From an uncultured Deinococcales bacterium (GTDB taxonomy: Bacteria > Deinococcota > Deinococci > Deinococcales > JAAFIG01), in contig CAXTTL010000022.1 of NCBI GenBank assembly GCA_964247135.1, positions 1 to 13,511 of the forward strand: a stretch of DNA of 13,511 nt, read 5' to 3'. The position numbers were made by a program, and so were the translations under genes. The stretch's first letter is position 1. The number at the start of each line of letters is the position of its first letter. The notes under the pieces are model-generated. The model saw only the letters and a list, made by a program, of their open reading frames with translations, was not told the DNA's origin and did no database searches. Positions 2-13,511 of this stretch are shown piece after piece.

Positions 2-202
2 TTGACCGAACGTGACCTCGAGGTGTTGCGCTTGGTGGCGCAAGGGCTTGCCAACAAGGTCATTGCGGATCGGCTCGAGATCAGTGAACGCACGGCTCGG
101 ACGCATGTCAGCAACATCCTCGAGAAATTGCATTTGGCGAACCGCACGCAAGCCACGTTGTATGCGATCAAGATGGGCATTGTTCCAAATTCTTCGGGTT
201 AG
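2..202 (+). CDS. NarL/FixJ-family response regulator, C-terminal LuxR-type HTH (5' end outside the window)
   Basis: LTERDLEVLRLVAQGLANKVIADRLEISERTARTHVSNILEKL..NRTQA matches the LuxR HTH consensus (LTxRExEVLxLxAxGxxNxxIAxxLxISxxTVxxHxxxIxxKL). Stop TAG at 200-202. Confidence 0.93.
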   Translation: MTERDLEVLRLVAQGLANKVIADRLEISERTARTHVSNILEKLHLANRTQATLYAIKMGIVPNSSG

Positions 203-822
203 GGGCGAAACGTTTTTTCGCCCGCCCGAATCGGGACAGCCAATCGATTCTCGAGCGGTGAGAGTGGGCAAACCCAGCGCGGGTTGTAGGCGCACGATGG
301 GTTGTAGGCATAGTTGAAATCGATCACCACAGCATCTTGGTCGCGTCCAAGGTCGGCGTGTTTGATCGTGTCGAGCAGGTAGCGCCCGCCGCCGTAAGTG
401 CTTGTACCGTTGGTCGCGTCGCCAAATGGCAGGAACACGCCGCCGCCATAACCGAGCAACCAGTACAGGCTCAACCGACAATCTTGCCCTTCGAGTTTGA
501 ATTGCACTTGCGCAAAGCGCTCGGCGCGAACCAGACCGTCTTCTGGGAGTTCAAACTCGAGCAGGTTTGGCGCGGCGGTTTCAAGCGGCAATTTCAGACG
601 CAGGGCGGGGTCGTAATCAAAATACTCGAGCTTGCCAAAACTGGCTTTTTGCATCTCATCCAGCGCAGATTGCGGATGACTGAAAAACAATTGATCTCGA
701 GCCGTCCGAAATGCTTGCAATGTTTCTCGAGCCTCAAGCCCACGTTGCTGTGCTTCACGAACTTGACAATAAATTTCATTCACCCAAGCGCGGTAATCCC
801 AAAGGTCGGCAAAACGGTTCAT
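199..822 (-). CDS. DUF1684 domain-containing protein (207 aa)
   Basis: Family motifs RDQLF..HPQS, L.YF.YDP, FLPFGDATNGTSTYGGGRYL and DFNYAYNPSCAYNPRWVCPL.P.EN.L...I.AGEK. ATG at 822 is preceded by a GAGGGAGAG SD-like tract (831-840), so it is preferred over the track start at 888. Confidence 0.9.
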   Translation of the reverse strand: MNRFADLWDYRAWVNEIYCQVREAQQRGLEARETLQAFRTARDQLFFSHPQSALDEMQKASFGKLEYFDYDPALRLKLPLETAAPNLLEFELPEDGLVRAERFAQVQFKLEGQDCRLSLYWLLGYGGGVFLPFGDATNGTSTYGGGRYLLDTIKHADLGRDQDAVVIDFNYAYNPSCAYNPRWVCPLSPLENRLAVPIRAGEKTFRP

Positions 823-843
823 GGTTTTATTCTCTCCCTCGAA

Positions 844-861
844 CCTGAGTTTTGACTCAGG
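844..861. promoter_or_regulatory. Perfect 7-bp inverted repeat in the divergent promoter region (possible operator or 5' UTR hairpin)
   Basis: CCTGAGT-TTTG-ACTCAGG between the divergent starts at 822 (-) and 985 (+). Confidence 0.35.
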
Positions 862-984
862 ACAATTGACGTAGCCACCGCCCCGCAATCTGCCGTTGCA
901 GCCTGGCTTGTAAAGGTTCAGGATAAGCGAAGCACTCGGATTCTCTCATGGCTCGAGTCAAGACTTGATTGTTCGGAGGTCATT

Positions 985-1917
985 ATGAAGCGTTTGAATT
1001 TTGGTATGTTCGGGGCAGTTCTGGCAGTGTTGCTGGTCAGTTTGGCGGCGGCACAAAGCAAAGGTACGATCACGGTCGGTTCAAAACTCGATGCCGAAGG
1101 GCATTTGCTCGGCAGCCTGATCGGGTTGAGGCTCGAGCAGGCGGGTTATCAGGTGGTTGACAAAACTGGCACCGGCACGACCACCATCACGCGCAAGGCA
1201 TTGGTCGAGGGTCAGATTGACATTTACCCCGAGTACACCGGCACGGCGATCAATAATTTTTTCAAAGGGCAGAACATCCCAGCAGGCACTTCCAAAAACG
1301 CTGCCAAGTCCTTCAGGACGGTCAAAAGTCTGGACAAGAAATTGAACGACATCGCCTGGTTGGGTCGTGCGCCAGCCAACAACACCTGGGCGATTTGCAC
1401 GCCAAAAACCCTGGCGCAAAAAGAGGGCATCAAATCCCTTGCCGATTTTGCCAGCTATGTCAACAAGGGCGGCATGGTCAAATTGATTGGCTCACAAGAG
1501 TTTCTCGAGCGTGACGATGCGCTCAAATCCTTTCAAAAAGTCTACGGCTTTACCCTGAAGGCAGAGCAAACCCTGGTGCTGGCTGGGGCGACCACCGCCC
1601 AAACAGAATCTGCCGCCGCCAAAGGCACAGACGGCGTGAATTTTGCGATGGCTTACGGCACGGACGGTTCGCTCTCGGCGCTTGGGCTGGTCGTGCTCTC
1701 CGATCCCAAAGGCGCACAACCCATTTACCAACCCGCACCAACCGTGCGCGGCGAGGTCTTGCGCAAGAACCCAGAATTGCCAAGATTGCTCGACCCGATT
1801 TTTGCCACGCTCGACGAGGCAACCTTGCAAAGCTTGAACGTACAAATTGACCTCGAGGGCAAGAACCCAAAAGATGTGGCTCGAGCGTATCTGATGGCAA
1901 AAGGATTTCTGAAATAA
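985..1917 (+). CDS. osmF: Osmoprotectant (glycine betaine/choline-type) ABC transporter substrate-binding protein, OpuAC/OsmF-YehZ family
   Basis: Sec signal peptide (MKR...AAAQ). Motifs VGSK.DAEG.LLG, IDIYPEYTGT, ANNTWAI, EF.ER.D, AMAYGTDG and QPIYQPAP.VR. SD GGAGGT at 975-980. Confidence 0.88.
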   Translation: MKRLNFGMFGAVLAVLLVSLAAAQSKGTITVGSKLDAEGHLLGSLIGLRLEQAGYQVVDKTGTGTTTITRKALVEGQIDIYPEYTGTAINNFFKGQNIPAGTSKNAAKSFRTVKSLDKKLNDIAWLGRAPANNTWAICTPKTLAQKEGIKSLADFASYVNKGGMVKLIGSQEFLERDDALKSFQKVYGFTLKAEQTLVLAGATTAQTESAAAKGTDGVNFAMAYGTDGSLSALGLVVLSDPKGAQPIYQPAPTVRGEVLRKNPELPRLLDPIFATLDEATLQSLNVQIDLEGKNPKDVARAYLMAKGFLK

Positions 1918-1924
1918 GTGGCTT

Positions 1925-1954
1925 GTGGCTCGGGGGACTGATTCCTCGAGCCGC
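1925..1954 (+). terminator. GC-rich stem-loop just after the binding-protein stop codon (terminator-like or mRNA-stabilising)
   Basis: GTGGCTCGGGGGA-CTGA-TTCCTCGAGCCGC forms a 13-bp stem with three G.U pairs. There is no strong U tract, so intrinsic termination is uncertain. Confidence 0.5.
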
Positions 1955-2061
1955 CGTTGGCGTTTATGGGCAGTTTGAAAAAGCGAATCTCAGATGGTTA
2001 ATGGCAAATATACTTGCAGTCAAGCGCTCACTGCACCATCACACCCATGAGGAGAGGCACG

Positions 2062-3501
2062 ATGAATCAATTTGACATCTTGATTGTTGGCGGCGGACAG
2101 GCGGGCATTCCACTGGCGTTTGCGCTCGCCAAGGCAGGCAAGAAAGTGGCTCTCGCCGAACGCAAACTGCTGGGTGGAAGCTGCGTCAACTTTGGTTGCA
2201 CGCCCACCAAAGCCGCCATCGCCAGTGCCAAACTCGCGCATCAAGCCAGACGAGCCAGCGAGTACGGCATTCAAATCTCAAGTGTCGTTGTGGATTTTGC
2301 GGCGGTGATCGAACGCGCCCGCAAGGTTGCTGCCCACTCGAGACAAGGGCATGATGCACGGCTCGAGCCTTCAGAAAACCCAAAATTGCTGCGCGGTCAT
2401 GCGCGATTTGAAAAACGCGAGGACGTAGGCGGTCAAGGCTTTGTGGTACATGTGGGTGATACCACGGTTCTTGCCAAACAGGTCATTATCAACACGGGCA
2501 CGCGCAGTTTGATTCCGCCGATTCCTGGCTTGATGGATGTCGATGTGGTTCATGCGGGCAACTGGCTCGAGTTGACCCAACTGCCCACGCACTTGGCGGT
2601 GATTGGTGGCGGTTACATCGGTCTGGAGATGGCACAATTTTATGCCCGCATGGGTTCAAAAGTCACCGTGCTTCATGCGGGGCAACGCATCGCAGACCGC
2701 GAAGACGAAGATGTCAGCCGCGAACTGGCAAACTTGCTCGAGCGTGAAGGGCTTGAGATTCTGACCAATGTTCACATCAGCCATGTCAGCAACGACGCTG
2801 GAACAATCAGCATTGCTTTTGAACAGGCTGGAAGTGCTCAAACCCTGAATTGCAGCCATGTCTTTGTCGCCACCGGACGCGTCATGAACAGCGATGACCT
2901 GGGTCTGGAAACCGTCGGCGTCAAAGTCTCCAACCGAGGCGCGGTCGAGGTCAATGAACGCCTCGAGACCAACGTGCCTGGAATTTACGCGGCGGGTGAC
3001 ATCACGGGCGGACCACAATTCACGCACGTCGCTTGGGACGATTACCGCGTGCTCGAGTCGCAATTGGTCGGAGATCGATCCTGGACGACCAAGCGCGTTG
3101 TGCCTTATGGCTTGTTCACCGATCCCGAATTGGGACGCGTCGGCATCACCGAACGCGAGGCGAGTGAACGCAACCTCGAGGTTAAAGTCGTGAAATTTGA
3201 GATGATCAAAAACGGCAAAGCCCGAGAGGTGGGCGAAGAGGACGGCTTTATCAAACTGGTGGTGGACGCCAAAACGGATCGTCTGCTGGGGGCGGCGGTG
3301 CTCTCGAGCGAAGGCGCGGAACTGGTTCACACTTACGTCACCCTGATGAATGCCGACGCGCCGTACACCGTGATTCGTGATGCCGTATTCGCCCACCCGA
3401 CCTTGCAGGAAGCCATTCAGAGCGCAACGGCACTCGTGCCAAAAGCCAATCCATTGCCCACGCTCGAAGTTCCCGCTCGAGCATCGCTTGTGGTTCGGTA
3501 A
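2062..3501 (+). CDS. Class I pyridine nucleotide-disulfide oxidoreductase (RclA/MerA/Lpd-like flavoprotein, 479 aa)
   Basis: FAD motif GGGQAG, redox dithiol GGSCVNFGCTPTK, NAD(P) motif GGGYIG, TNVPGIYAAGD, FTDPELGRVG and C-terminal HPTLQE. ATG at 2062 follows GAGGAGAGG. Confidence 0.9.
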   Translation: MNQFDILIVGGGQAGIPLAFALAKAGKKVALAERKLLGGSCVNFGCTPTKAAIASAKLAHQARRASEYGIQISSVVVDFAAVIERARKVAAHSRQGHDARLEPSENPKLLRGHARFEKREDVGGQGFVVHVGDTTVLAKQVIINTGTRSLIPPIPGLMDVDVVHAGNWLELTQLPTHLAVIGGGYIGLEMAQFYARMGSKVTVLHAGQRIADREDEDVSRELANLLEREGLEILTNVHISHVSNDAGTISIAFEQAGSAQTLNCSHVFVATGRVMNSDDLGLETVGVKVSNRGAVEVNERLETNVPGIYAAGDITGGPQFTHVAWDDYRVLESQLVGDRSWTTKRVVPYGLFTDPELGRVGITEREASERNLEVKVVKFEMIKNGKAREVGEEDGFIKLVVDAKTDRLLGAAVLSSEGAELVHTYVTLMNADAPYTVIRDAVFAHPTLQEAIQSATALVPKANPLPTLEVPARASLVVR

Positions 3502-3594
3502 GGTTATGCGTTTTGAAATTCGTAGGGTGAACTTCATAGCTCAACCCAAAAACTCGAGCCTCAGACCAGAAAATGTACTTGACCTCGCCTGAAG

Positions 3595-3755
3595 CCCTCA
3601 CCCGGCTCGTTCCTCGCCACCCTCTCCCGCTTGCGGGAGAAGGAAAAGACTTCGAGCCACGTGTGTAAAAACCTAAACTCCCTTCTCCCGATGTTGGGAG
3701 AAGCGGTTTCGCCCGTCAGGTGCGTCTTGAAACCAAGAAGGGTTGGGGATGAGGG
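3595..3755. repeat. Inverted pair of CCCTCACCC..CCCTCTCCC..GGGAGA-type REP-like palindromic units (BIME/REPIN-like)
   Basis: Unit A 3595-3643 has hairpin TCTCCCGC-TT-GCGGGAGA. Unit B 3680-3755 is oppositely oriented with hairpin CTTCTCCC-GATGTT-GGGAGAAG and tail GGGTTGGGGATGAGGG. The outer ends CCCTCA and TGAGGG are complementary. Confidence 0.8.
3704..3739. mobile_element. 36-38 bp hairpin mini-insertion, copy 1, inside REP-like unit B
   Basis: C-GGTTTC-GCCCGTCAGGTGCGTCTT-GAAACC-AAGAA. Removing it restores a continuous GGGAGAAGGGGTTGGGGATGAGGG arm. It is related to 9213-9250. Confidence 0.65.
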
Positions 3756-3907
3756 AAGACAGCGCAATCGCTGATCTTCATGTCCGACAAAGTCAATTAA
3801 AACTTGAAGCTCGAGCGATCAAATCAAATTGAGCTTTCTCCGTTCGGGACTGGATTTTGGAAGTGATCTGAGCCACAACTTGGGTCTGCCAAAGAGGTGA
3901 ACACTGT

Positions 3908-5974
3908 ATGAACAACAAGTTACAGAAAACCGAAACTCAAACCACTTCATCGGCGCTTCATCCTGCACGCCCAAAATCCAGCCAGATGCCTCAAGTGAAG
4001 CAAGCCGAACCTCAAGCCCTGACGCTCGAGCGCGAGCAAATCAAGCTCGAGGCTGGGTTGAATCAAGAATGGTTGGTGACCAACGGCATTGGTGGTTACG
4101 GCATGGGTTCGCTGGTTGGTGGCAGAACGCGGCATTATCACGGCTTGCTGGTGGCGGCGCTCGAGCCTCCAACGGGGCGTTTTGTGCTGGTGGCGCAGAT
4201 GATCGAACGGGTGACGCTGGCAGATGGACGCTCTGAAAGTTTGCATGTTCAAGAGTGGGGCGGCGGCAGCACCGACCCGCGCGGCGATGTCTGGCTCGAG
4301 TCGTTTAGCCTCGAGGGTACGATTCCAACCTGGCGTTATGTTTTTGGCGAGACGATCCTCGAGAAGCGCCTTTGGATGGTGCATGGCAAGAACACCAGTT
4401 TCGTGACCTACAGTGTGCTGGCGGGTGATGCCATCACGCTCGAGGTGCAACCGCTTTGCACCTACCGCGACCATCATTCGGGGACAAAGGCGGGTGAAAC
4501 CCCGCAGGTCGAGAGGCTCGAGGACGGTCTGGCAATCGAGTTTCCAAATGCCAAACCATACTTTATTCACACCAACTTGGGCGAGCCTGTTGCGGGCGGT
4601 GAGTGGTGGTTCAACGAATTCTTGCGGGTCGAAGCCGAACGCGGTTTTGATGCGCTTGAAGACCTGTATCGTGCTGGCAGTTTTAACGCCACACTCGAGT
4701 CTGGACAAACCCTGGCGCTCGCGCTCTCGAGCGAAACCGATGCCAGTGCCAGCGACTGGCAGGCGCAACTCGAGGCGGAACAAGCCAGGGCAAAAACCTT
4801 GCTCGAGTTGGCAAAAATCAAAACCGAACCCGTTTGGGTGCAACAACTGGTGCTGGCAGCCGACCAGTTTGTGGTGGCTCGAGGCGCGGGTGACACGGTA
4901 ATCGCAGGTTATCCGTGGTTTGGAGACTGGGGGCGCGACACCATGATTGCACTGCCTGGGCTGGCGCTGTCCACCGGACGCCCCGAACTCGCCTCGAGTT
5001 TGCTGCGCACCTTTGGGCATTTTGTGGATCGCGGCATGATCCCCAACCGTTTTCCTGATGTCGGTGAAACACCCGAGTACAACACGGTGGACGCAACCCT
5101 CTGGTATGTTCACGCCCTGCGTGAGCACGTGAAAACAACGGGAGACGAAGGCTTGGTGGACGAACTTTGGGTGACGCTCGAGGCAATTGTGCGCTGGCAT
5201 TTGAACGGCACACGTTACGGCATTGGGGTCGATCCAAGCGACGGTCTGTTGCGGGCGGGCGAGCCTGGGGTGCAACTGACCTGGATGGATGCCAAGATTG
5301 GTGATTGGGTGGTCACGCCGCGCACCGGCAAACCCGTCGAGATCAATGCGCTCTGGTTCAGCGCCCTGCGCACCCTCGAGGCATGGGCGGCATCGCGCAA
5401 GGCGAACCATGATTACGGTGCGTTGGCGGATCGGGTGGGTGATTCGTTTGCGCGGTATTGGAATAAAAACACGAATTACCTCTACGACGTGATCGATGGT
5501 CCTGACGGTGATGATCCGACCATACGCCCCAACGCCGTGATCGCCGCCAGCTTGCAGCATTCGCCGCTCGAGAACCGTTGGCGCAGGGCGGTGGTGGATG
5601 TCGCCACCGCGCAACTCCTCACGCCTTACGGTTTGCGTTCACTCTCGCCAGAAGATTCGCGCTACGCGCCGCAGTACCGTGGTTCGCCCCTCGAGCGCGA
5701 TGCGGTTTACCATCAGGGAACGGTCTGGGCTTGGTTGCTTGGACCTTTTGCCGAAGCCCATTTGCGCACCTACGCCCATCCACTGTCCGCCAGGGCGTTT
5801 CTCGAGCCGATGGCGCAACATCTCTTGCAGGGCGGTCTGGGTTCGATCTCCGAGATTCTTGACGGTGACGCGCCACATACACCTCGAGGTTGTCCGTGGC
5901 AAGCCTGGAGTGTCGCCGAAATACTGCGAGCTTGGAAACTGACCGCACCACGCTCGAGAAGCCGTCAAAGCTGA
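3908..5974 (+). CDS. Glycogen debranching enzyme, archaeal type (GDE_N plus amylo-alpha-1,6-glucosidase domain)
   Basis: EWLVTNGIGGY, TRHYHGLLVAA, IAGYPWFGDWGRDTMI, GMIPNRF, YNTVDATLW, QLTWMDAK, GKPVEINALW, YHQGTVWAWL, SEI.DGD.P, QAWSVAE. SD GAGGTG at 3894-3899. Confidence 0.93.
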   Translation: MNNKLQKTETQTTSSALHPARPKSSQMPQVKQAEPQALTLEREQIKLEAGLNQEWLVTNGIGGYGMGSLVGGRTRHYHGLLVAALEPPTGRFVLVAQMIERVTLADGRSESLHVQEWGGGSTDPRGDVWLESFSLEGTIPTWRYVFGETILEKRLWMVHGKNTSFVTYSVLAGDAITLEVQPLCTYRDHHSGTKAGETPQVERLEDGLAIEFPNAKPYFIHTNLGEPVAGGEWWFNEFLRVEAERGFDALEDLYRAGSFNATLESGQTLALALSSETDASASDWQAQLEAEQARAKTLLELAKIKTEPVWVQQLVLAADQFVVARGAGDTVIAGYPWFGDWGRDTMIALPGLALSTGRPELASSLLRTFGHFVDRGMIPNRFPDVGETPEYNTVDATLWYVHALREHVKTTGDEGLVDELWVTLEAIVRWHLNGTRYGIGVDPSDGLLRAGEPGVQLTWMDAKIGDWVVTPRTGKPVEINALWFSALRTLEAWAASRKANHDYGALADRVGDSFARYWNKNTNYLYDVIDGPDGDDPTIRPNAVIAASLQHSPLENRWRRAVVDVATAQLLTPYGLRSLSPEDSRYAPQYRGSPLERDAVYHQGTVWAWLLGPFAEAHLRTYAHPLSARAFLEPMAQHLLQGGLGSISEILDGDAPHTPRGCPWQAWSVAEILRAWKLTAPRSRSRQS

Positions 5975-6044
5975 GAGCTGAGAACTTACGCGAACAAGAA
6001 AGCGAATCAAAAACTTGAGTCCGATTCTCAAAAATCCTTGTCCT

Positions 6045-6072
6045 GTAGCGGCGCATGGCTATGCGCCGCTAC
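6045..6072. repeat. GTAG-class REP palindrome
   Basis: Perfect 12-bp inverted repeat GTAGCGGCGCAT-GGCT-ATGCGCCGCTAC, starting with the GTAG tetranucleotide, in the spacer between the two glycosidase genes. Confidence 0.75.
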
Positions 6073-6105
6073 GTTGAAACTCACCGCACACCCAGGAGGT
6101 CAATC

Positions 6106-8760
6106 ATGACAAACACCAACACGCCCGAACACGAACGCCTCGAGCAATACCGGCAGCATATTGGTCACTGGAAACGCTGGGGACCGTATTTGTCTGACCG
6201 CGCCTGGGGTACGGTGCGCGAGGATTACAGCGCCAACGGCACGGCTTGGGAGCACTTCCCGCACGATCAGGCTCGCTCGAGGGCGTACCGTTGGAACGAG
6301 GATGGACTCATGGGCATCAGCGACCACAATGGGCGTTTGTGCTTGGCGTTGGCGCTTTGGAATGGGGTTGACCCGATTTTAAAAGAACGGCTTTTTGGTT
6401 TGACGGGCAACGAGGGCAACCACGGCGAGGATGTCAAGGAGCATTATTTCTACCTCGAGAGTACCCCAACCCATTCGTACATGAAGGGTTTGTACAAGTA
6501 CCCGCAAGCCGAATTTCCGTACTCGAGGTTGGTCGAGGAAAACCGCAGGCGCGGTAAATCTGAACCGGAATTTGAATTGTTTGATACTGGAATATTTAAT
6601 GAGCAAAAATATTGGGATGTCGAAATAGAGTACGCCAAAGCCGATTCTGATGACATCCTGATGCGCGTCACGGTGCACAATCGAGGACCCCAAACCGCAC
6701 GGTTGCATGTCCTGCCAACGCTGTGGTTTCGCAACACCTGGTCTTGGGGTTATGAGGGCACAAAGCATCACACCATTCAACATGAAAGTGCTTTTGCGCT
6801 GTCTGCCGATCATCCCGAACTTGGGAAGCGCCATTTGTACTTTGAAGCCGACGCCGACGCCCTGTTCTGCGAGAACGAAACCAACCTGACCAAACTCTAC
6901 AACGTTCCCAACCACTCGAGCACCGCCAAGGACGGCATCAACGACTTGGTGGTTCACGGACGTCTGGACGCCGCCAACCGCATCGACGGCTCGAAAGCCG
7001 CGATCTGGCATCAACTCGAGGTTGCACCAGGCGCGTCCAAAACCGTGCGGGTGCGTTTTTCGGCGGCGGTGCTCGAGCAAGCTTTTCACGATTTCGACAT
7101 GATCTTCGAGCGCCGCAAACTCGAGAGCGACGAATTTTTTGACACCCTCGAACCCGCAGGACTGAACGACGATCAACGCTTGGTACAACGTCAAGCCTTT
7201 GCGGGGATGCTCTGGAGCAAACAATTTTACCATTACAACATCGAACATTGGCTCGAGGGCGATCCAGCCGGACCACCGCCGCCGGAATCACGCAAAAACG
7301 GGCGCAACCGCGACTGGCGGACGCTCAACACCGCCGAGATCATCTCGATGCCGGACTGTTGGGAATACCCCTGGTTTGCCGCCTGGGATTTGGCGTTTCA
7401 CACCATTCCGCTGGCGCTGCTCGACCCAGAATTTGCCAAGAATCAATTGTTGTTATTAACCAAAGAATGGTATCAACACCCCAACGGTCAACTGCCCGCC
7501 TACGAATGGCAGTTTAGCGATGTCAACCCACCCGTTCACGCCTGGGCGGTCTGGCGGGTTTACCAGACCGAACAAGAACACTGGGGTCGCTCCGACCGAG
7601 CCTTCCTCGAGCGTGCTTTTCACAAGCTGCTCTTGAATTTCACATGGTGGGTCAACCGCAAGGACGCGGAAGGTCGCAACGTCTTTCAGGGCGGGTTTCT
7701 CGGGCTGGACAACATCTCGGTCTTTGACCGCTCACAACCCCTGCCCGGAGGCGGACACCTCGAGCAAGCCGATGGCACCGCCTGGATGGGGATGTTCTGT
7801 CTGAACATGCTCAAAATCGCGCTCGAGCTTTCCCGCGATAACCCCGTGTACGAGGACATTGCCACCAAATTCTTCGAGCATTTCTTGTACATTGCCAACA
7901 GTCTCAACCGCCTGGAACTCTGGGACGAAATGGACGAGTTTTACTACGATGTGCTGCGAATGCCCAACGGCAACGCCGAGAAATTACGCGTGCGCAGCAT
8001 GGTCGGACTGATCCCACTGCTCGCCGTCGAAATCCTCGAGCCAGAAGATCTCAAATCTTTTCCGCAATTTACCGCCCGTTTAAACTGGTTTCTCGAGCAT
8101 CGCCCCGACCTCGCCAGCCTGGTCTCCAGATGGATGGAATCTGGCAAAGACGACCGCCACCTGCTCGCCCTGGCACGTGGACACCGAATGAAACGCGTCC
8201 TCGCCCGAATGCTCGACCAGACCGAATTCCTTTCCGATTACGGCATCCGCGCCCTCTCCAGACACCACCTCGAGCATCCTTACGAGGTCAACGCCGAGGG
8301 TCAAAGTTACCGCATCGCCTACGAACCCGCCGAGAGCAGCAGCGGTTTGTTTGGCGGCAATTCCAACTGGCGCGGACCGATCTGGTTTCCGATCAATTAC
8401 CTCTTGATCGAAAGCCTGCAAAAGTTTCACTTGTATTACACCGAGGATTTCAAAATCGAATGCCCAACCGGTTCTGGCGCGTACCTGAGCCTGCTCGAGG
8501 TTGCGGGTGAACTTTCAAAACGTTTGATCGGCATTTTCACCAAAGACCAGCTCGAGCGCCGCGCCGTGTTTGGCGAGAACCAAACCTTTCAAAACGACCC
8601 GCACTGGCAAGACCTGGTGCCGTTTCACGAGTATTTCAATGGGGATAGCGGCAAAGGCGTGGGCGCGTCACACCAGACGGGCTGGACTGGACTGGTGGCA
8701 ACGTTGTTGCACCAGCAAGGGCAGGTTGAAGTGAAAGAGACGCTCGAGAGCATGATTTGA
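6106..8760 (+). CDS. Large GH63-related (MGH1-like, yeast YMR196W-like) glucosidase, 884 aa
   Basis: WKRWGPYLS.R.WGTVREDYS, EGNHGEDVKE, SMPD.WEYPWFAAWDLAFH, GGFLGLDNI, QADGT.WM, GGNSNWRGPIW and F.EYF.GD.G.G.GASHQTGWT. ATG at 6106 follows SD AGGAGGT, so it is preferred over 6055. Confidence 0.9.
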   Translation: MTNTNTPEHERLEQYRQHIGHWKRWGPYLSDRAWGTVREDYSANGTAWEHFPHDQARSRAYRWNEDGLMGISDHNGRLCLALALWNGVDPILKERLFGLTGNEGNHGEDVKEHYFYLESTPTHSYMKGLYKYPQAEFPYSRLVEENRRRGKSEPEFELFDTGIFNEQKYWDVEIEYAKADSDDILMRVTVHNRGPQTARLHVLPTLWFRNTWSWGYEGTKHHTIQHESAFALSADHPELGKRHLYFEADADALFCENETNLTKLYNVPNHSSTAKDGINDLVVHGRLDAANRIDGSKAAIWHQLEVAPGASKTVRVRFSAAVLEQAFHDFDMIFERRKLESDEFFDTLEPAGLNDDQRLVQRQAFAGMLWSKQFYHYNIEHWLEGDPAGPPPPESRKNGRNRDWRTLNTAEIISMPDCWEYPWFAAWDLAFHTIPLALLDPEFAKNQLLLLTKEWYQHPNGQLPAYEWQFSDVNPPVHAWAVWRVYQTEQEHWGRSDRAFLERAFHKLLLNFTWWVNRKDAEGRNVFQGGFLGLDNISVFDRSQPLPGGGHLEQADGTAWMGMFCLNMLKIALELSRDNPVYEDIATKFFEHFLYIANSLNRLELWDEMDEFYYDVLRMPNGNAEKLRVRSMVGLIPLLAVEILEPEDLKSFPQFTARLNWFLEHRPDLASLVSRWMESGKDDRHLLALARGHRMKRVLARMLDQTEFLSDYGIRALSRHHLEHPYEVNAEGQSYRIAYEPAESSSGLFGGNSNWRGPIWFPINYLLIESLQKFHLYYTEDFKIECPTGSGAYLSLLEVAGELSKRLIGIFTKDQLERRAVFGENQTFQNDPHWQDLVPFHEYFNGDSGKGVGASHQTGWTGLVATLLHQQGQVEVKETLESMI

Positions 8761-8870
8761 GACTGAAGTACCGTCAGGGTTTTTTAACCTGCGGTGATGA
8801 ACTCAAAATCTCTACTTCCGCGTTACATCCACAGGGCAAAAAGGCGAAATCTACAGTAATTTTGGTATTG

Positions 8871-9493
8871 GTTGAGAATGTGCTGGCTCGAGCGTTCAAA
8901 GTGGAGAAACCGAATCAAAAATGGGTGACTGACATCACGTACATTCCAACAACGCAAGGTTGTTTGTATTTGGCTGTGGTGCTGGACTTGTTCTCGAGTA
9001 TGATCGTGGGTTGGGCTTTTTCTTCGAGCCTCGAGACGAAATTGGTGTTGAACGCATTAGAGAGTGCAAGACGAAAGCGTAAACCGAGTGCTGAAGGGGG
9101 TTTGTTGCATCACAGTGATCGTGGGGTGCAATACGCGAGTCTCGAGTACCGATAGGCATTAAATGCGTTGAAAGCGACGTGTAGCGTGAGTCGGAAAGGA
9201 AATTGTTGGGATGGTGACCATGCCCACTAGCTGCGTTTTATGGTCAAGAAAATGCGGTAGCTGAAAGCTTCTTTTCAACGTTGAAACTCGAGTTAGACCT
9301 GAACAAATCGATTGGAACAAAGGATTTCACGAGTGGGAGCGCGTTTTCTTGGATGGAGGGTTGGTATAACCGTGAACGTCGGCACTCGAGCCTGGGGTAT
9401 GTGTCCCCAGTGAAGTTTGAGGAGGAGTTTCTTTCTCAACCTCGAACTAACAAAACCCTTGCAATTCCAGAGTTCAGAGGTTGCTCGGTATGA
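8871..9493 (+). pseudogene. IS3-family transposase OrfB (rve integrase) remnant: 5'-truncated, with an in-frame stop and a 38-bp insertion
   Basis: PNQKWVTDITY, YLAVVLDLFS..IVGW, HHSDRGVQY, then TAG at 9153-9155, SRKGNCWD, insertion, NAVAESFFSTLKLE and WYNRERRHSSLGYVSP. All three DDE positions are recognisable. No OrfA is seen. Confidence 0.93.
9213..9250. mobile_element. 38-bp hairpin mini-insertion, copy 2, inside the IS3 integrase
   Basis: GG-TGACCAT-GCCCACTAGCTGCGTTTT-ATGGTCA-AGAA lies exactly between codons TGG GAT (WD) and AAT GCG (NA). Removing it restores both the frame and the GNCWDNAVAESFF motif. No target duplication. Confidence 0.8.
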
Positions 9494-11908: not shown

Positions 11909-13511
11909 ATGATTGTCATTATGACCACGGCAGTCAAGCCACTCGAGAACCTGTTCAAACCGATTCAGTTGCGGCGTGCTGGTCTGGCGTTGTGCTTGTG
12001 GGGCGAGGCTGGAATTGGTAAAACGCACCTGGCAGGCGTGCTGGCTCGAGATTCTGGGTTGAAAAGCGTTAAGGTTCAGGCAAATGCCAGCCTGCTCGAG
12101 ATGACGCAAGCCTTGCCCATGCCAAAGAAGTTGCCCTTGTGGGCGCAACGTTTACCAGATCAATTGACCAATCTTGGGCATCTCGAGGCGCTTCAGGCGG
12201 CAGAATTGGTTGGGGTGCTGCTGGTGCAAGCTACCCCGATCATTCTTTGGGTTGAAGATGTCCATGAATCCAAACCAGAACGCCTGGAATTCTGGCAGAA
12301 GTTGGCGGGCATTGTCGCGCACAGCAAAGGCGTAGCGCTCCTGACAACCAGCCGTGCGGCGCTGTTAACGCCGTTTGTCTTGCATCGGGTTTTGCCAATG
12401 TCCATCGAAGAAAGCCGTTCGGCACTCGAGACAGAACTTGGTGCAGCAATTCCAGCCGAGGCACTCGAGTGGATTCAAGCTCGAGCAGCAGGCAATCCGT
12501 TGTTTGCCCTGGAATATTTTCGGACTTTGGCACGGGCTGGGTTTTTGTGGAACGATTCAAAACGTTGGCGTTGGCGACCTCCCGAAAACAATTTGATGCC
12601 GACCACCGTCGAAGCCTTGATTTTCCGCAGCTTGCTCGAGGCGTTGGATTCGCCCGCACTGGAAAAAGCGCTCAAAGCAAAAGCCTTGCTGTTTGCGGGG
12701 GCAAACGATCTGTTGTGGGCAAACGTTGCCGAACTCGAGCCGCCAGAGTTGGGGTATCTAAAACTTGAACTCGAGCGGCGCGGAATTTTGGTGGACGGGC
12801 AGTTTGTTCACCCGCTTTTTCGAGAAGTGACCTTGGAAAGTTTGACGCCGCTCGAGCGAAAAACTTTTGCCAGACGAGCCATTCAAGCTTTAGAGATGGA
12901 TGCTGCAGAATTGGCGGCAGAATTGATTCAAGCTGCGGCACTGTTACCCAGCGAAGCTTTTGCCTTGCTGGAACGGGCGGCAACACGAACTGAGAATTCT
13001 TTACAGGCTGCTCGGTTGAAAGCTCGAGCCGTTGAATTTGCTGAACTTGAACGGCGCGGGGCTTTGGCGTTTGAAGCCGCAAATTTGCTCGAGCCTTTTG
13101 ATTTACAGCAAGCAGAACAACTGATGGCACAGGCTGTGCAATTGCAACACGACCTTGAAGCCCATTATGGCTGGATCGTGTTGCTGGTCAGGCTCGGAAA
13201 AATTGAACAGGCAAGTCAAGTATTTTCGCAACTTTCTATAGCAGAACGCGAATCTAGACGTGGTTTAGAGACCCGCTTGTTCTTGCAATACCGCCAAGCC
13301 GACGACGCTGGTGCGGTGAGCATCTGGCGCAACGAACTTCAAGCAGATACCGACATTGACCCGTCAGCCCTCTCGTATCTGACCCATGCGCTGGCAAACA
13401 CGGGTCAGACCGAACTGGCATTTGAGATAGCCCTGAACGCTCTCGAGCGTCCCAACCTGAGTGCTCGGCAACGTGGGCAGTTGCTTGAAGTGTGTGGTAT
13501 TTTCGAGTTCA
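11909..13511 (+). CDS. STAND-class (AAA_16/MalT-like) ATPase with helical TPR-like region; 3' end outside the window; absent from the ORF track
   Basis: Manual translation is open from ATG 11909 (or 11921) to the window end. Walker A GEAGIGKT, Walker B ILWVEDVH, sensor TTSR, GNPLF (GxP) and FVHPLFRE winged-helix motif, then Ala/Leu/Glu-rich helices. In-frame upstream TGA at 11894-11896. Confidence 0.88.
   Translation, partial: MIVIMTTAVKPLENLFKPIQLRRAGLALCLWGEAGIGKTHLAGVLARDSGLKSVKVQANASLLEMTQALPMPKKLPLWAQRLPDQLTNLGHLEALQAAELVGVLLVQATPIILWVEDVHESKPERLEFWQKLAGIVAHSKGVALLTTSRAALLTPFVLHRVLPMSIEESRSALETELGAAIPAEALEWIQARAAGNPLFALEYFRTLARAGFLWNDSKRWRWRPPENNLMPTTVEALIFRSLLEALDSPALEKALKAKALLFAGANDLLWANVAELEPPELGYLKLELERRGILVDGQFVHPLFREVTLESLTPLERKTFARRAIQALEMDAAELAAELIQAAALLPSEAFALLERAATRTENSLQAARLKARAVEFAELERRGALAFEAANLLEPFDLQQAEQLMAQAVQLQHDLEAHYGWIVLLVRLGKIEQASQVFSQLSIAERESRRGLETRLFLQYRQADDAGAVSIWRNELQADTDIDPSALSYLTHALANTGQTELAFEIALNALERPNLSARQRGQLLEVCGIFEF

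Follow-up and report, generated by a model that had tools for sequence, protein, structure and literature searches.

To our knowledge, mobile DNA shorter than ~100 nt is almost undocumented, and the only described case we know of is that of the small dispersed repeats (SDRs) of cyanobacteria, whose mechanism has stayed unknown since 2008. SDRs are reportedly units of 21-27 nt, which Elhai et al. are said to have described in 2008 as inserting into conserved sequence and into each other, with conserved flanks and a hairpin kept by compensatory changes. A passage of one article describes them as about 20 bp in length, tandemly repeated and possibly mobile (PMC2884548). Repetitive extragenic palindromes (REPs) and REPINs, with their REP-associated tyrosine transposases (RAYTs), offer a second point of reference: passages of two further articles describe intergenic hairpin repeats of 20-40 nt, present in high copy and thought to be handled as single strands by an HUH Y1 enzyme (PMC3116915; PMC3733652). 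Here we describe a family of non-coding sequences of 36-40 nt, called mini-elements below, starting from two copies in a 13,511-nucleotide stretch of DNA (the window) from an uncultured Deinococcales bacterium (GenBank assembly GCA_964247135.1, contig CAXTTL010000022.1). We are highly confident that they form a precisely inserting, structure-constrained mobile family.

SDRs are the closest analogue, and the comparison is apt. Both kinds of unit are far below the size of miniature inverted-repeat transposable elements (MITEs), are non-coding, occur dispersed as well as in tandem, and have no known mobiliser. Like SDRs as reported, mini-elements are dispersed, stand in tandem (27 of 133 copies) or nested (29 of 133), and carry compensatory stem changes. 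They differ in length (36-40 nt, against 21-27 nt), in host phylum (Deinococcota) and in consensus, which is unrelated. Beyond what is described for SDRs, the mini-element has defined ends, an A^G target, a single nesting bond and an insertion sequence (IS) of the IS110 family specialised for its loop. Mini-elements would be among the smallest mobile elements seen, and a second, independent and better-resolved case beside SDRs. With >1,000 copies across 18 related genomes, filled and empty sites, exact ends and a defined bond, the family makes the movement of a 37-nt sequence directly testable and is well suited to finding how tiny elements move.

An earlier note, made from the letters of the window, had picked out two segments, c-GGTTTC-18 nt-GAAACC-aagaa (copy 1) and ggt-GACCAT-18 nt-ATGGTC-aagaa (copy 2), and both are as it described them. 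Their 18-nt loops are identical at 13/18 positions, and 5/6 stem pairs differ while staying Watson-Crick. The coordinates of copy 2 stand, whereas copy 1, placed at 3704-3739, is moved by the family-wide boundaries to 3703-3739 so as to include the GCG start. The two copies and the sequences around them are as follows, in window coordinates.

3703..3739, + strand: mini-element copy 1, 37 nt; GGTTTC/GAAACC stem subfamily, loop GTCA, tail AAGAA; full-length nhmmer match
3680..3702, + strand: left part of the host REP-like hairpin, CCCTTCTCCC, loop GATGTT, then GGGAGAA
3740..3758, + strand: right part of the host REP-like repeat, GGGTTGGGGATGAGGGAAG; its first GGG completes the split stem
3630..3646, + strand: unoccupied site resembling the preferred target, ..GCGGGAGAA|GGAAAAG, ~60 nt before copy 1
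9213..9250, + strand: mini-element copy 2, a 38-nt insertion made of the 37-nt unit 9214-9250 and one further base; GACCAT/ATGGTC subfamily
8757..9493, + strand: degenerate IS3-family orfB remnant; Pfam rve (integrase core), E 2.5e-19

Copy 1 was inserted after GGGAGAA, within the 3' arm of a 10-bp host stem. Copy 2, which is decayed (~4-5 changes off its subfamily consensus), splits the IS3 remnant between the GNCWD and NA codons; the remnant also has a stop at 9153-9155. A third candidate in the window, a partial loop look-alike inside an open reading frame (12019-12039, - strand; nhmmer E 0.77), was rejected.

The source genome, a metagenome-assembled genome (MAG) of 5.09 Mb in 386 contigs, contains the multi-copy family with conserved loop and covarying stem that the earlier note had proposed. 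The loop pattern alone has 48 exact matches there. A profile built from 78 clean copies gave 130 full-length matches, and excision of these followed by a renewed search brought the number to 133 full copies, 11 of which could be detected only once an inner copy had been excised. Most are 37 nt long (83 copies), the others 36 nt (41) or 38 nt (9), and they are split between the strands (68 and 65). The core GCCCG-N1-3-AGGTGC occurs 191 times in the genome, compared with 5 in the reversed genome, and an expression for the full element 162 times, compared with 2 in the reversed control. The excess above 133 comes from longer sister subfamilies of 39-40 nt, such as GCG-ACCCAA-...GGTGCTGCTTT-CAGGGT-CAAGAA.

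The consensus unit reads GCG, a 6-bp variable stem, GCCCG(N)NAGGTGCRTYTT, the second stem arm and CAAGAA, in 36-40 nt. Within it, GCCCG-(N)NA-GGTGC is able to fold into a second short stem, in which GC/GC and CC/GG flank a bulged T and a GNNA or GNA loop caps the end; the 3' side alone then has a T-rich bulge, RTYTT, ahead of the 3' stem arm and CAAGAA. The GCG start is present in 75/78 clean copies, and some copies end in AAGA-N-A or have a changed last base. Variation is concentrated at loop positions 14-15, R22, Y24 and N37 and in the identity of the stem, and affects at most 3 of the 78 copies at any position elsewhere. Neutral decay of dead copies would not leave this pattern, which fits many active lineages selected for mobility. 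As a separate observation, one 39-nt sister subfamily (on source-genome contigs, for example C6:61346-61470, C47:8367 and C157:4604; L144, L145) keeps a tandem G.A/A.G mismatch in its outer stem, next to which the pairs covary (GTA/TAC vs ACA/TGT).

The evidence for structure is comparative. In a 47-row alignment of copies from the window, the source genome and its relatives, 95.1% of cells are paired, against 81.9% in shuffles (0/500 reach the observed value) and 29-41% with slid partners, and 5/6 pairs of the outer stem have changes on both sides. The inner stem is invariant in this alignment, and its pairing is neither backed nor contradicted. Because the rows had been chosen for stem diversity, the pairing test was rerun without selection. 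A perfect flanking 6-bp stem is present in 105 of 188 testable cores, with 13 different arm sequences, and 5/6 pairs in another 19; a control with slid arms gave 0. An expression blind to pairing recovered 124 distinct copies, 113 of which have all five variable pairs Watson-Crick. The covarying stem claimed in the earlier note therefore holds in unselected copies too. In the outer stem, sequence comparison shows conservation of the pairing alone, whereas nearly all unpaired bases are kept. Complementarity between the bulge TYTT and the tail AAGA gives the alternative fold that has the lowest energy for copy 1; both of these segments are nearly invariant.

Comparison of filled and empty sites demonstrates how precise the insertions are. 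The host hairpin of copy 1, GGAGAAGGGTYGGGGATGA, occurs uninterrupted 61 times in the source genome, and the same site is filled by other copies as well, nine of which were classed as host a. Three types of GTAG-tagged REP are uninterrupted 14-16, 111 and 73 times. Filled and empty host REPs differ by exactly 36 or 37 nt, with no duplicated bases. The IS3 site GNCWD|NA is empty in C78 of the source genome and in L115, L123 and L124, and filled in the window, in C65 and C14 of the source genome (the latter by a nested and tandem cluster) and in L122 (triple-nested). Once copy 2 is removed, the window IS3 remnant aligns continuously across the junction with empty relatives, with 86% identity to L115 (568 nt) and 81% to C78 (559 nt), while its identity to the filled C65 is just 68%. 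The window IS3 is nearer to the empty copies than to the filled one, and the same bond must therefore have been hit independently in diverged IS3 lineages. Removal of either insert thus restores its host, as the earlier note had held, and intact homologous IS3 and REP copies without the segments exist.

Orthologous sites agree. When copies in relatives were compared by their flanks with the source genome, two REPs that are filled in relatives proved exactly empty in the source genome, where the flanks match at 84-92% identity. One relative has a filled IS3 orfA site whose counterpart in the homologous IS3 of the source genome (C78) is empty, and a fourth case is empty save for a loop difference. 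The filled/empty comparison suggested in the earlier note thus yields paralogous and orthologous sites that differ by exactly the element, and its view that insertion proceeds without obvious target duplication was borne out: precise units are seen at REP, IS3 orfA and nested sites, with no duplication in most cases. For the window copies themselves, the intergenic query around copy 1 matched paralogous repeats in five same-genus genomes and no flanking gene, leaving no orthologous site to compare; among contigs from public reads, which derive from ~90%-identical relatives and break at repeats, none spanned either copy cleanly. Of the read runs listed, none was recorded as RNA, and the closest had at most 0.14 of the sampled words in common. 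The spacer around copy 1 (3540-3785) is itself a high-copy composite repeat: every one of the five genomes has 26-57 counted matches to ~3540-3785 (40 candidates scored in each).

Both window copies lie in other selfish DNA, a habit that extends to the whole family: its hosts include REPs, IS3, IS200 and IS110 elements and mini-elements themselves, and copies disrupt IS3, IS200-type tnpA and IS110 genes. In the closed genome G011, for instance, an IS200-type tnpA (L165, C1 ~4193063-4193373) is split between its YHIV and CPAKYRR codons. The IS200-type tnpA of G017 (L186, C401:8500-9400) has two separate mini-element insertions plus stop codons.

Where do mini-elements insert? Of the 133 copies, 29 are nested in the loop of another copy, always between the loop-ending A and GGTGC, and 27 abut another copy head to tail. 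Named host repeats hold 37, with 14 at two host a sites and 23 in the three GTAG REP types; the remaining 40 were classed as 'other', and most of these are also at small palindromes. Most copies are solitary. Arrays run head to tail without a spacer, with a period of 36-38 that equals the unit length, and they mix stem subfamilies. At the 62 distinct sites outside nests and tandem arrays, A stands at position -1 in 40, G at +1 in 41, and G or C at +2 in 54. On the left the tetranucleotide AGAA is more frequent than any other (12/62 sites), a preference rather than a fixed word. Insertion favours the bond A^G(G/C), with AGAA^GG as its commonest form. This target resembles the element's own junction, AAGAA|GCG, a likeness that accounts for the tandem arrays. 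At asymmetric targets all copies point the same way, and palindromic REPs receive both orientations at slightly different bonds, as is consistent with strand-specific target recognition. With respect to the neighbouring genes, 29 copies run in the same direction and 25 are antisense, while 24 lie between convergent gene ends and 10 between divergent ones. The idea that Y24 acts as a guide by pairing with target position -3 gave no clear rule (G at 9/14 sites with C24 and at 28/55 with T24), and at nested sites T24 is associated with T at -3, which is not a base pair; the idea was rejected.

These sites also bear on whether mini-elements moved at all. A few ancient insertions inside REPs, REPINs and IS could have multiplied passively with their hosts, helped by slippage and unequal crossing-over. 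The host repeats are indeed high-copy, many arrays are homogeneous, and six copies at GGGGATGA^ have one stem type and tail. Passive multiplication nevertheless leaves unexplained why copies are found in settings that are unique and unrelated to each other (elements of three different IS families, intergenic DNA of unique sequence, CTCGA^G sites) and why different stem subfamilies nest in and abut each other. It also has to contend with one IS3 site hit in lineages of 68% identity whose nearer relatives are empty, with orthologous REPs that differ by exactly one unit, and with copies whose per-site conservation is far above that of their hosts. We regard it as very unlikely.

The family was found in one lineage, of uncultured relatives of Deinococcus. 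The loop pattern has 63-199 matches in each of 5/5 same-genus genomes and is found in 15/18 genomes of the taxonomic family and 0/42 genomes of four other families of the order; the reversed pattern gave 0. A covariance model extends this to 18/18 family genomes, the genus missed by the loop pattern having a bulge that reads ATGTTT or ACGCTT. Copy number varies: genome G015 nearly lacks the mini-element, and the closed genome G011 holds ~10 decayed copies. Outside the family, 9/132 genomes of the order gave one weak covariance-model match each, and the two that were inspected (in G019 and G116) are unrelated sequence and not copies. A scan of one genome per species, with a pattern that captures 38-nt variants only, returned 98 stretches; among the 80 listed loci, 78 are from Deinococcales/Deinococcota MAGs and 2 from Corynebacterium sp. 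The two latter (L011:6217-6245, L033:77-105) are single matches in identical context, with a 5-bp complementary flank and no GCG start. They probably lie in a conserved gene and were taken for chance. Searches of plasmids, phages and viral contigs gave no mini-element match. Rfam had 0 matches at gathering score in the window and 0 at E up to 1 in 3560-3800.

Could the mini-element instead be a functional module, selected by the host as a weak terminator, an mRNA stabiliser or a binding site for a protein or the nucleoid, and spread by recombination? Its inner GC stem and T-run resemble a small terminator, copies between convergent gene ends outnumber those between divergent ones (24 vs 10) as with REPs, and the sequence is strongly conserved across genera. 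A host function is hard to reconcile with copies that occur equally often in both orientations to genes, destroy each other by nesting and interrupt transposase genes. The closed genome G011 has just ~10 decayed copies left, and the element is without an Rfam match. Selection for such a function is highly improbable as an account of the family.

How, then, would a 37-nt sequence move? The mini-element is non-autonomous, as the earlier note had claimed: no protein gene lies within it or regularly beside it, and the only recurrent neighbours, ABC ATPases, short-chain dehydrogenases and response regulators, belong to ordinary paralogue families. We propose that a trans-acting protein would recognise it in the form of a folded single strand. 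This enzyme would cut both ends, at A|GCG and AAGAA|G, and rejoin the unit at a short A|G target that resembles the element's own 3' end, and every intact copy could then act as a source. The whole statement, a family of 36-40 nt non-coding, non-autonomous mobile elements moved by this single-strand mechanism, is in our judgement evenly balanced between right and wrong. A single-strand HUH/Y1-type transposase acting on one hairpin is our leading candidate for the enzyme, and a tentative one. An IS110-type enzyme ranks second, and an undescribed enzyme carries a weight similar to that of the IS110 type.

The mechanism of IS200/IS605 transposition was reportedly described by Barabas et al. in 2008. 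Mini-elements share with these elements the lack of inverted terminal repeats and of target duplication, a dependence on a hairpin, and insertion 3' of a sequence like the right end. Against the IS200/IS605 elements and palindrome-associated transposable elements (PATEs) treated in parts of an overview (PMC6006769), the mini-element has a single compound hairpin instead of two and is unlike the ends of the resident IS200-like element. Unlike in IS200/IS605, its target is loose and also constrained on the 3' side, and no strand bias was detectable in a GC-skew test of low power. Y1_Tnp matches number four in the source genome and occur in 14/17 other family genomes versus 1/8 outside, and are absent from G015. 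The four are an IS200-like TnpA on contig C249, RAYTs on C136 and C1, and a Y1 fragment on C5.

Several observations weigh against the single-strand mechanism or the enzyme proposed for it. None of the copies adjoins any of the four Y1 genes (8,414 nt searched, best E 0.029). The end hairpins of the resident IS200-like element are unrelated, being of the CCGAAGCTTGCTTCGG type, and two RAYT genes are flanked by their own GTAG REPs (types c and d). Y1_Tnp was not found in the copy-rich G008 (91% complete) and G006 (74%); G007, with 73 copies, has a partial Y1 match only, and G011 has an intact IS200-type gene yet ~10 decayed copies. IS200/IS605 elements as known have a hairpin at each end and a strict 4-5-nt target, whereas the mini-element has a single hairpin and accepts a loose target, with constraint to either side of the cut. 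Among 76 independent clusters, orientation was not associated with local GC skew (Fisher p 0.46-0.82), a test with low power because the skew is weak and the contigs are short. In folding energy, single copies do not stand out from shuffles (z -1.2 to -1.7), and the minimum-energy fold of copy 1 is an alternative one; with folding energy so unexceptional, the case for structure is comparative and not energetic. A few insertions add 38 nt, and the IS3 site gains an extra A. Finally, copy number may partly reflect hitch-hiking in larger repeats, as the shared stem type of the six copies at GGGGATGA^ illustrates, and slippage in arrays may add copies.

Mini-elements invite confusion with REPs, being likewise short, hairpin-forming and high-copy. 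They lack a GTAG, CTAC or CGTC tag, GTAG being found on the host REPs; their arrays are head-to-tail and single units insert alone, without inverted doublets; and they flank no Y1 gene, whereas GTAG REPs flank the RAYTs. Their loop is conserved and their stem variable, the reverse of REPs. The true GTAG REPs of the genome are targets of the mini-element and not its relatives. DDE-type MITEs differ too, since mini-elements end in GCG... and ...CAAGAA and have neither terminal inverted repeats nor target duplication. Clustered regularly interspaced short palindromic repeats (CRISPR) are set apart by the fact that mini-element units abut without spacers and are mostly solitary. Helitrons and IS91 elements move by rolling circle, insert between two fixed bases, have a hairpin near the 3' end and form tandem arrays. 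Mini-elements resemble them in the lack of duplication and of terminal inverted repeats, in a hairpin a few bases from the 3' end and in tandem arrays, but Helitrons and IS91 are hundreds to thousands of times larger. Y2_Tnp (PF04986, IS91) had no match in 31 genomes, with the control genomes likewise silent.

Spread through an RNA copy, by transcription, reverse transcription and insertion of the cDNA, is the least probable of the alternatives that we weighed. The conserved hairpin with its GNNA-type loop would fold as RNA, and there is one RVT_1 gene in the source genome. RVT_1 is, however, found in 0/5 other same-genus genomes, which have 63-199 copies each, and in 4/18 family genomes. There is no 5'-truncation series, partial matches being halves split by nesting or members of other subfamilies. 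Orientation is unbiased relative to flanking genes, and stem mismatches have no excess of G-T (3/10).

A different link to an enzyme came from an IS110-family element that uses the mini-element as its target.

Source-genome contig C51:14327-15517 (L194:1028-2218): IS110-family element, 1,191 bp, the sole one in the source genome
L188, L189, L190, L192, L193, L196-L201, L206-L209, L213: further IS110 records

The C51 element lies inside the loop of a mini-element that is itself in a REP loop, and five other genomes have homologous copies (66-89% identical) at that position. Its bond, GCCCG(N)NA^GGTGC, is the nesting bond of mini-elements in 6/6 full copies from 6 genomes, and 12/12 further left-end junctions are preceded by GCACC-TT. 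GCACC(C/T)T is present in the left non-coding region of the IS and has the sense of the left target. A second motif of this region is CCG-NNA-GC, in which NNA equals the loop letters of the host copy in 8/8 cases readable on both sides, across 5 loop variants. Two IS110 copies of another genus have in the left region an exact same-sense copy of the IS right end (ACGGCTGC). IS621 is an IS110-family element that Durrant et al. reportedly described in 2024 as working with a bridge RNA. We take the left-end layout to match the target and donor guides of that RNA, and by this analogy the left region looks like a pair of putative bridge-RNA guides, one for the target and one for the donor. Because the bond is shared and the guide letters track the loop, we conclude that this IS is, as judged from its sequence, programmed to land in the mini-element loop. 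It appears to offer a natural case in which a bridge-RNA guide of the IS110 family has changed together with its target, and bears on the retargeting of RNA-guided recombinases.

The traffic also runs the other way. A degenerate 39-nt mini-element lies in the IS110 left end at L194 ~1134-1172 (contig C51) and also in L192, L188 and L193, and is absent from L190 and L189. This insert occupies the stretch that is the putative donor guide (the right-end copy) in two other IS copies, and the lineage that carries it still kept spreading. The same C51 element has a sub-threshold Rfam match to the ribosomal protein L10 leader (L194:711-835, - strand; 35.1 bits vs a gathering score of 44, E 0.0028).

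The relationship raises the possibility that an IS110-family (DEDD) recombinase moves mini-elements as small double-stranded circles under the direction of a bridge RNA. Recombination would occur at a shared core AA|G, between the circle junction CAAGAA|GCG and a similar target core, and the element's transcript, or its complementary arms, would substitute for the donor guide. IS110-family elements target REPs, and insertion sequences that do so were reportedly surveyed by Tobes and Pareja in 2006. The resident 1.19-kb element lends this route some circumstantial support: it uses the exact nesting bond, its left ends agree throughout, its guide NNA equals the host loop and a copy of its right end stands in the left region. 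The anatomy is alike, as IS110 and mini-element each begin with GC, finish with AA and leave no target duplication. They also have a short shared core at the two junctions and insert into hairpin repeats at the same bond, and the mini-element's target consensus resembles the circle junction on both sides of the cut.

The differences make this route rather unlikely, in our view. The mini-element has no recombinase gene or full bridge RNA. PF01548 (IS110) is found in just 9/19 family genomes, though the MAGs among them are incomplete, and was not found in the copy-rich G005 (92% complete), G009 and G013 (both 94%). A bridge RNA specifies ~14 nt of target, against at least 62 different mini-element sites, and the junction is bordered by the variable stem arms, beyond the reach of a fixed donor guide. 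The ends match only in part (6/9 letters on one side and 3/9 on the other), and the IS may just exploit the mini-element as a safe multi-copy target. Of the three enzyme types named in the earlier note, Y1/HUH, reverse transcriptase and IS110, none tracks the mini-element cleanly across genomes.

A more speculative joint reading, improbable as a whole, is a 'nano-transposon' that serves as its own guide, is moved by a recombinase in trans and is engaged in an arms race with IS110. Nearly every base would be a recognition signal, and an RNA or single-strand copy would pair with both of the element's own DNA ends. With complementary arms as a self-guide any pairing stem works, which would explain the covariation. 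The chemistry would be that of a trans recombinase, either IS110-type or undescribed. In the arms race, the IS110 target guide would follow the hypervariable loop letters of the mini-element. If true, this would make three tiers of parasitism, with IS110 living on the mini-element, the mini-element on REPs and REPs on the genome. The folded single strand acted on in trans remains our preferred reading of how mini-elements move.

The genes of the window are ordinary. They include those for a betaine-binding protein, a pyridine-nucleotide disulphide oxidoreductase, a glycogen debranching enzyme, a GH63-like hydrolase and a futalosine-pathway menaquinone enzyme, among others, and copy 1 is located in the repeat-rich spacer that separates the oxidoreductase and debranching-enzyme genes.

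One further property of the host lineage recalls the SDRs, whose cyanobacterial hosts also have a hyper-abundant palindrome, HIP1; in the lineage of the mini-elements it is CTCGAG. A literature search that did not extend to supplementary files returned no description of the mini-element family or of CTCGAG hyper-abundance. CTCGAG occurs 33,926 times in the 5.09-Mb genome, ~27 times the expectation for a random hexamer (in the window at, for example, 3811-3816, 9143-9148 and 9289-9294). The next 6-nt palindrome has 3,273 copies, and GAGCTC has 0. Counts of CTCGAG range from 12,028 to 35,442 in the 18 family genomes, where GAGCTC mostly occurs 3-25 times, and from 128 to 7,001 in 12 genomes from other families of the order. 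CTCGAG is thus an HIP1-like highly iterated palindrome that is co-distributed with mini-elements.

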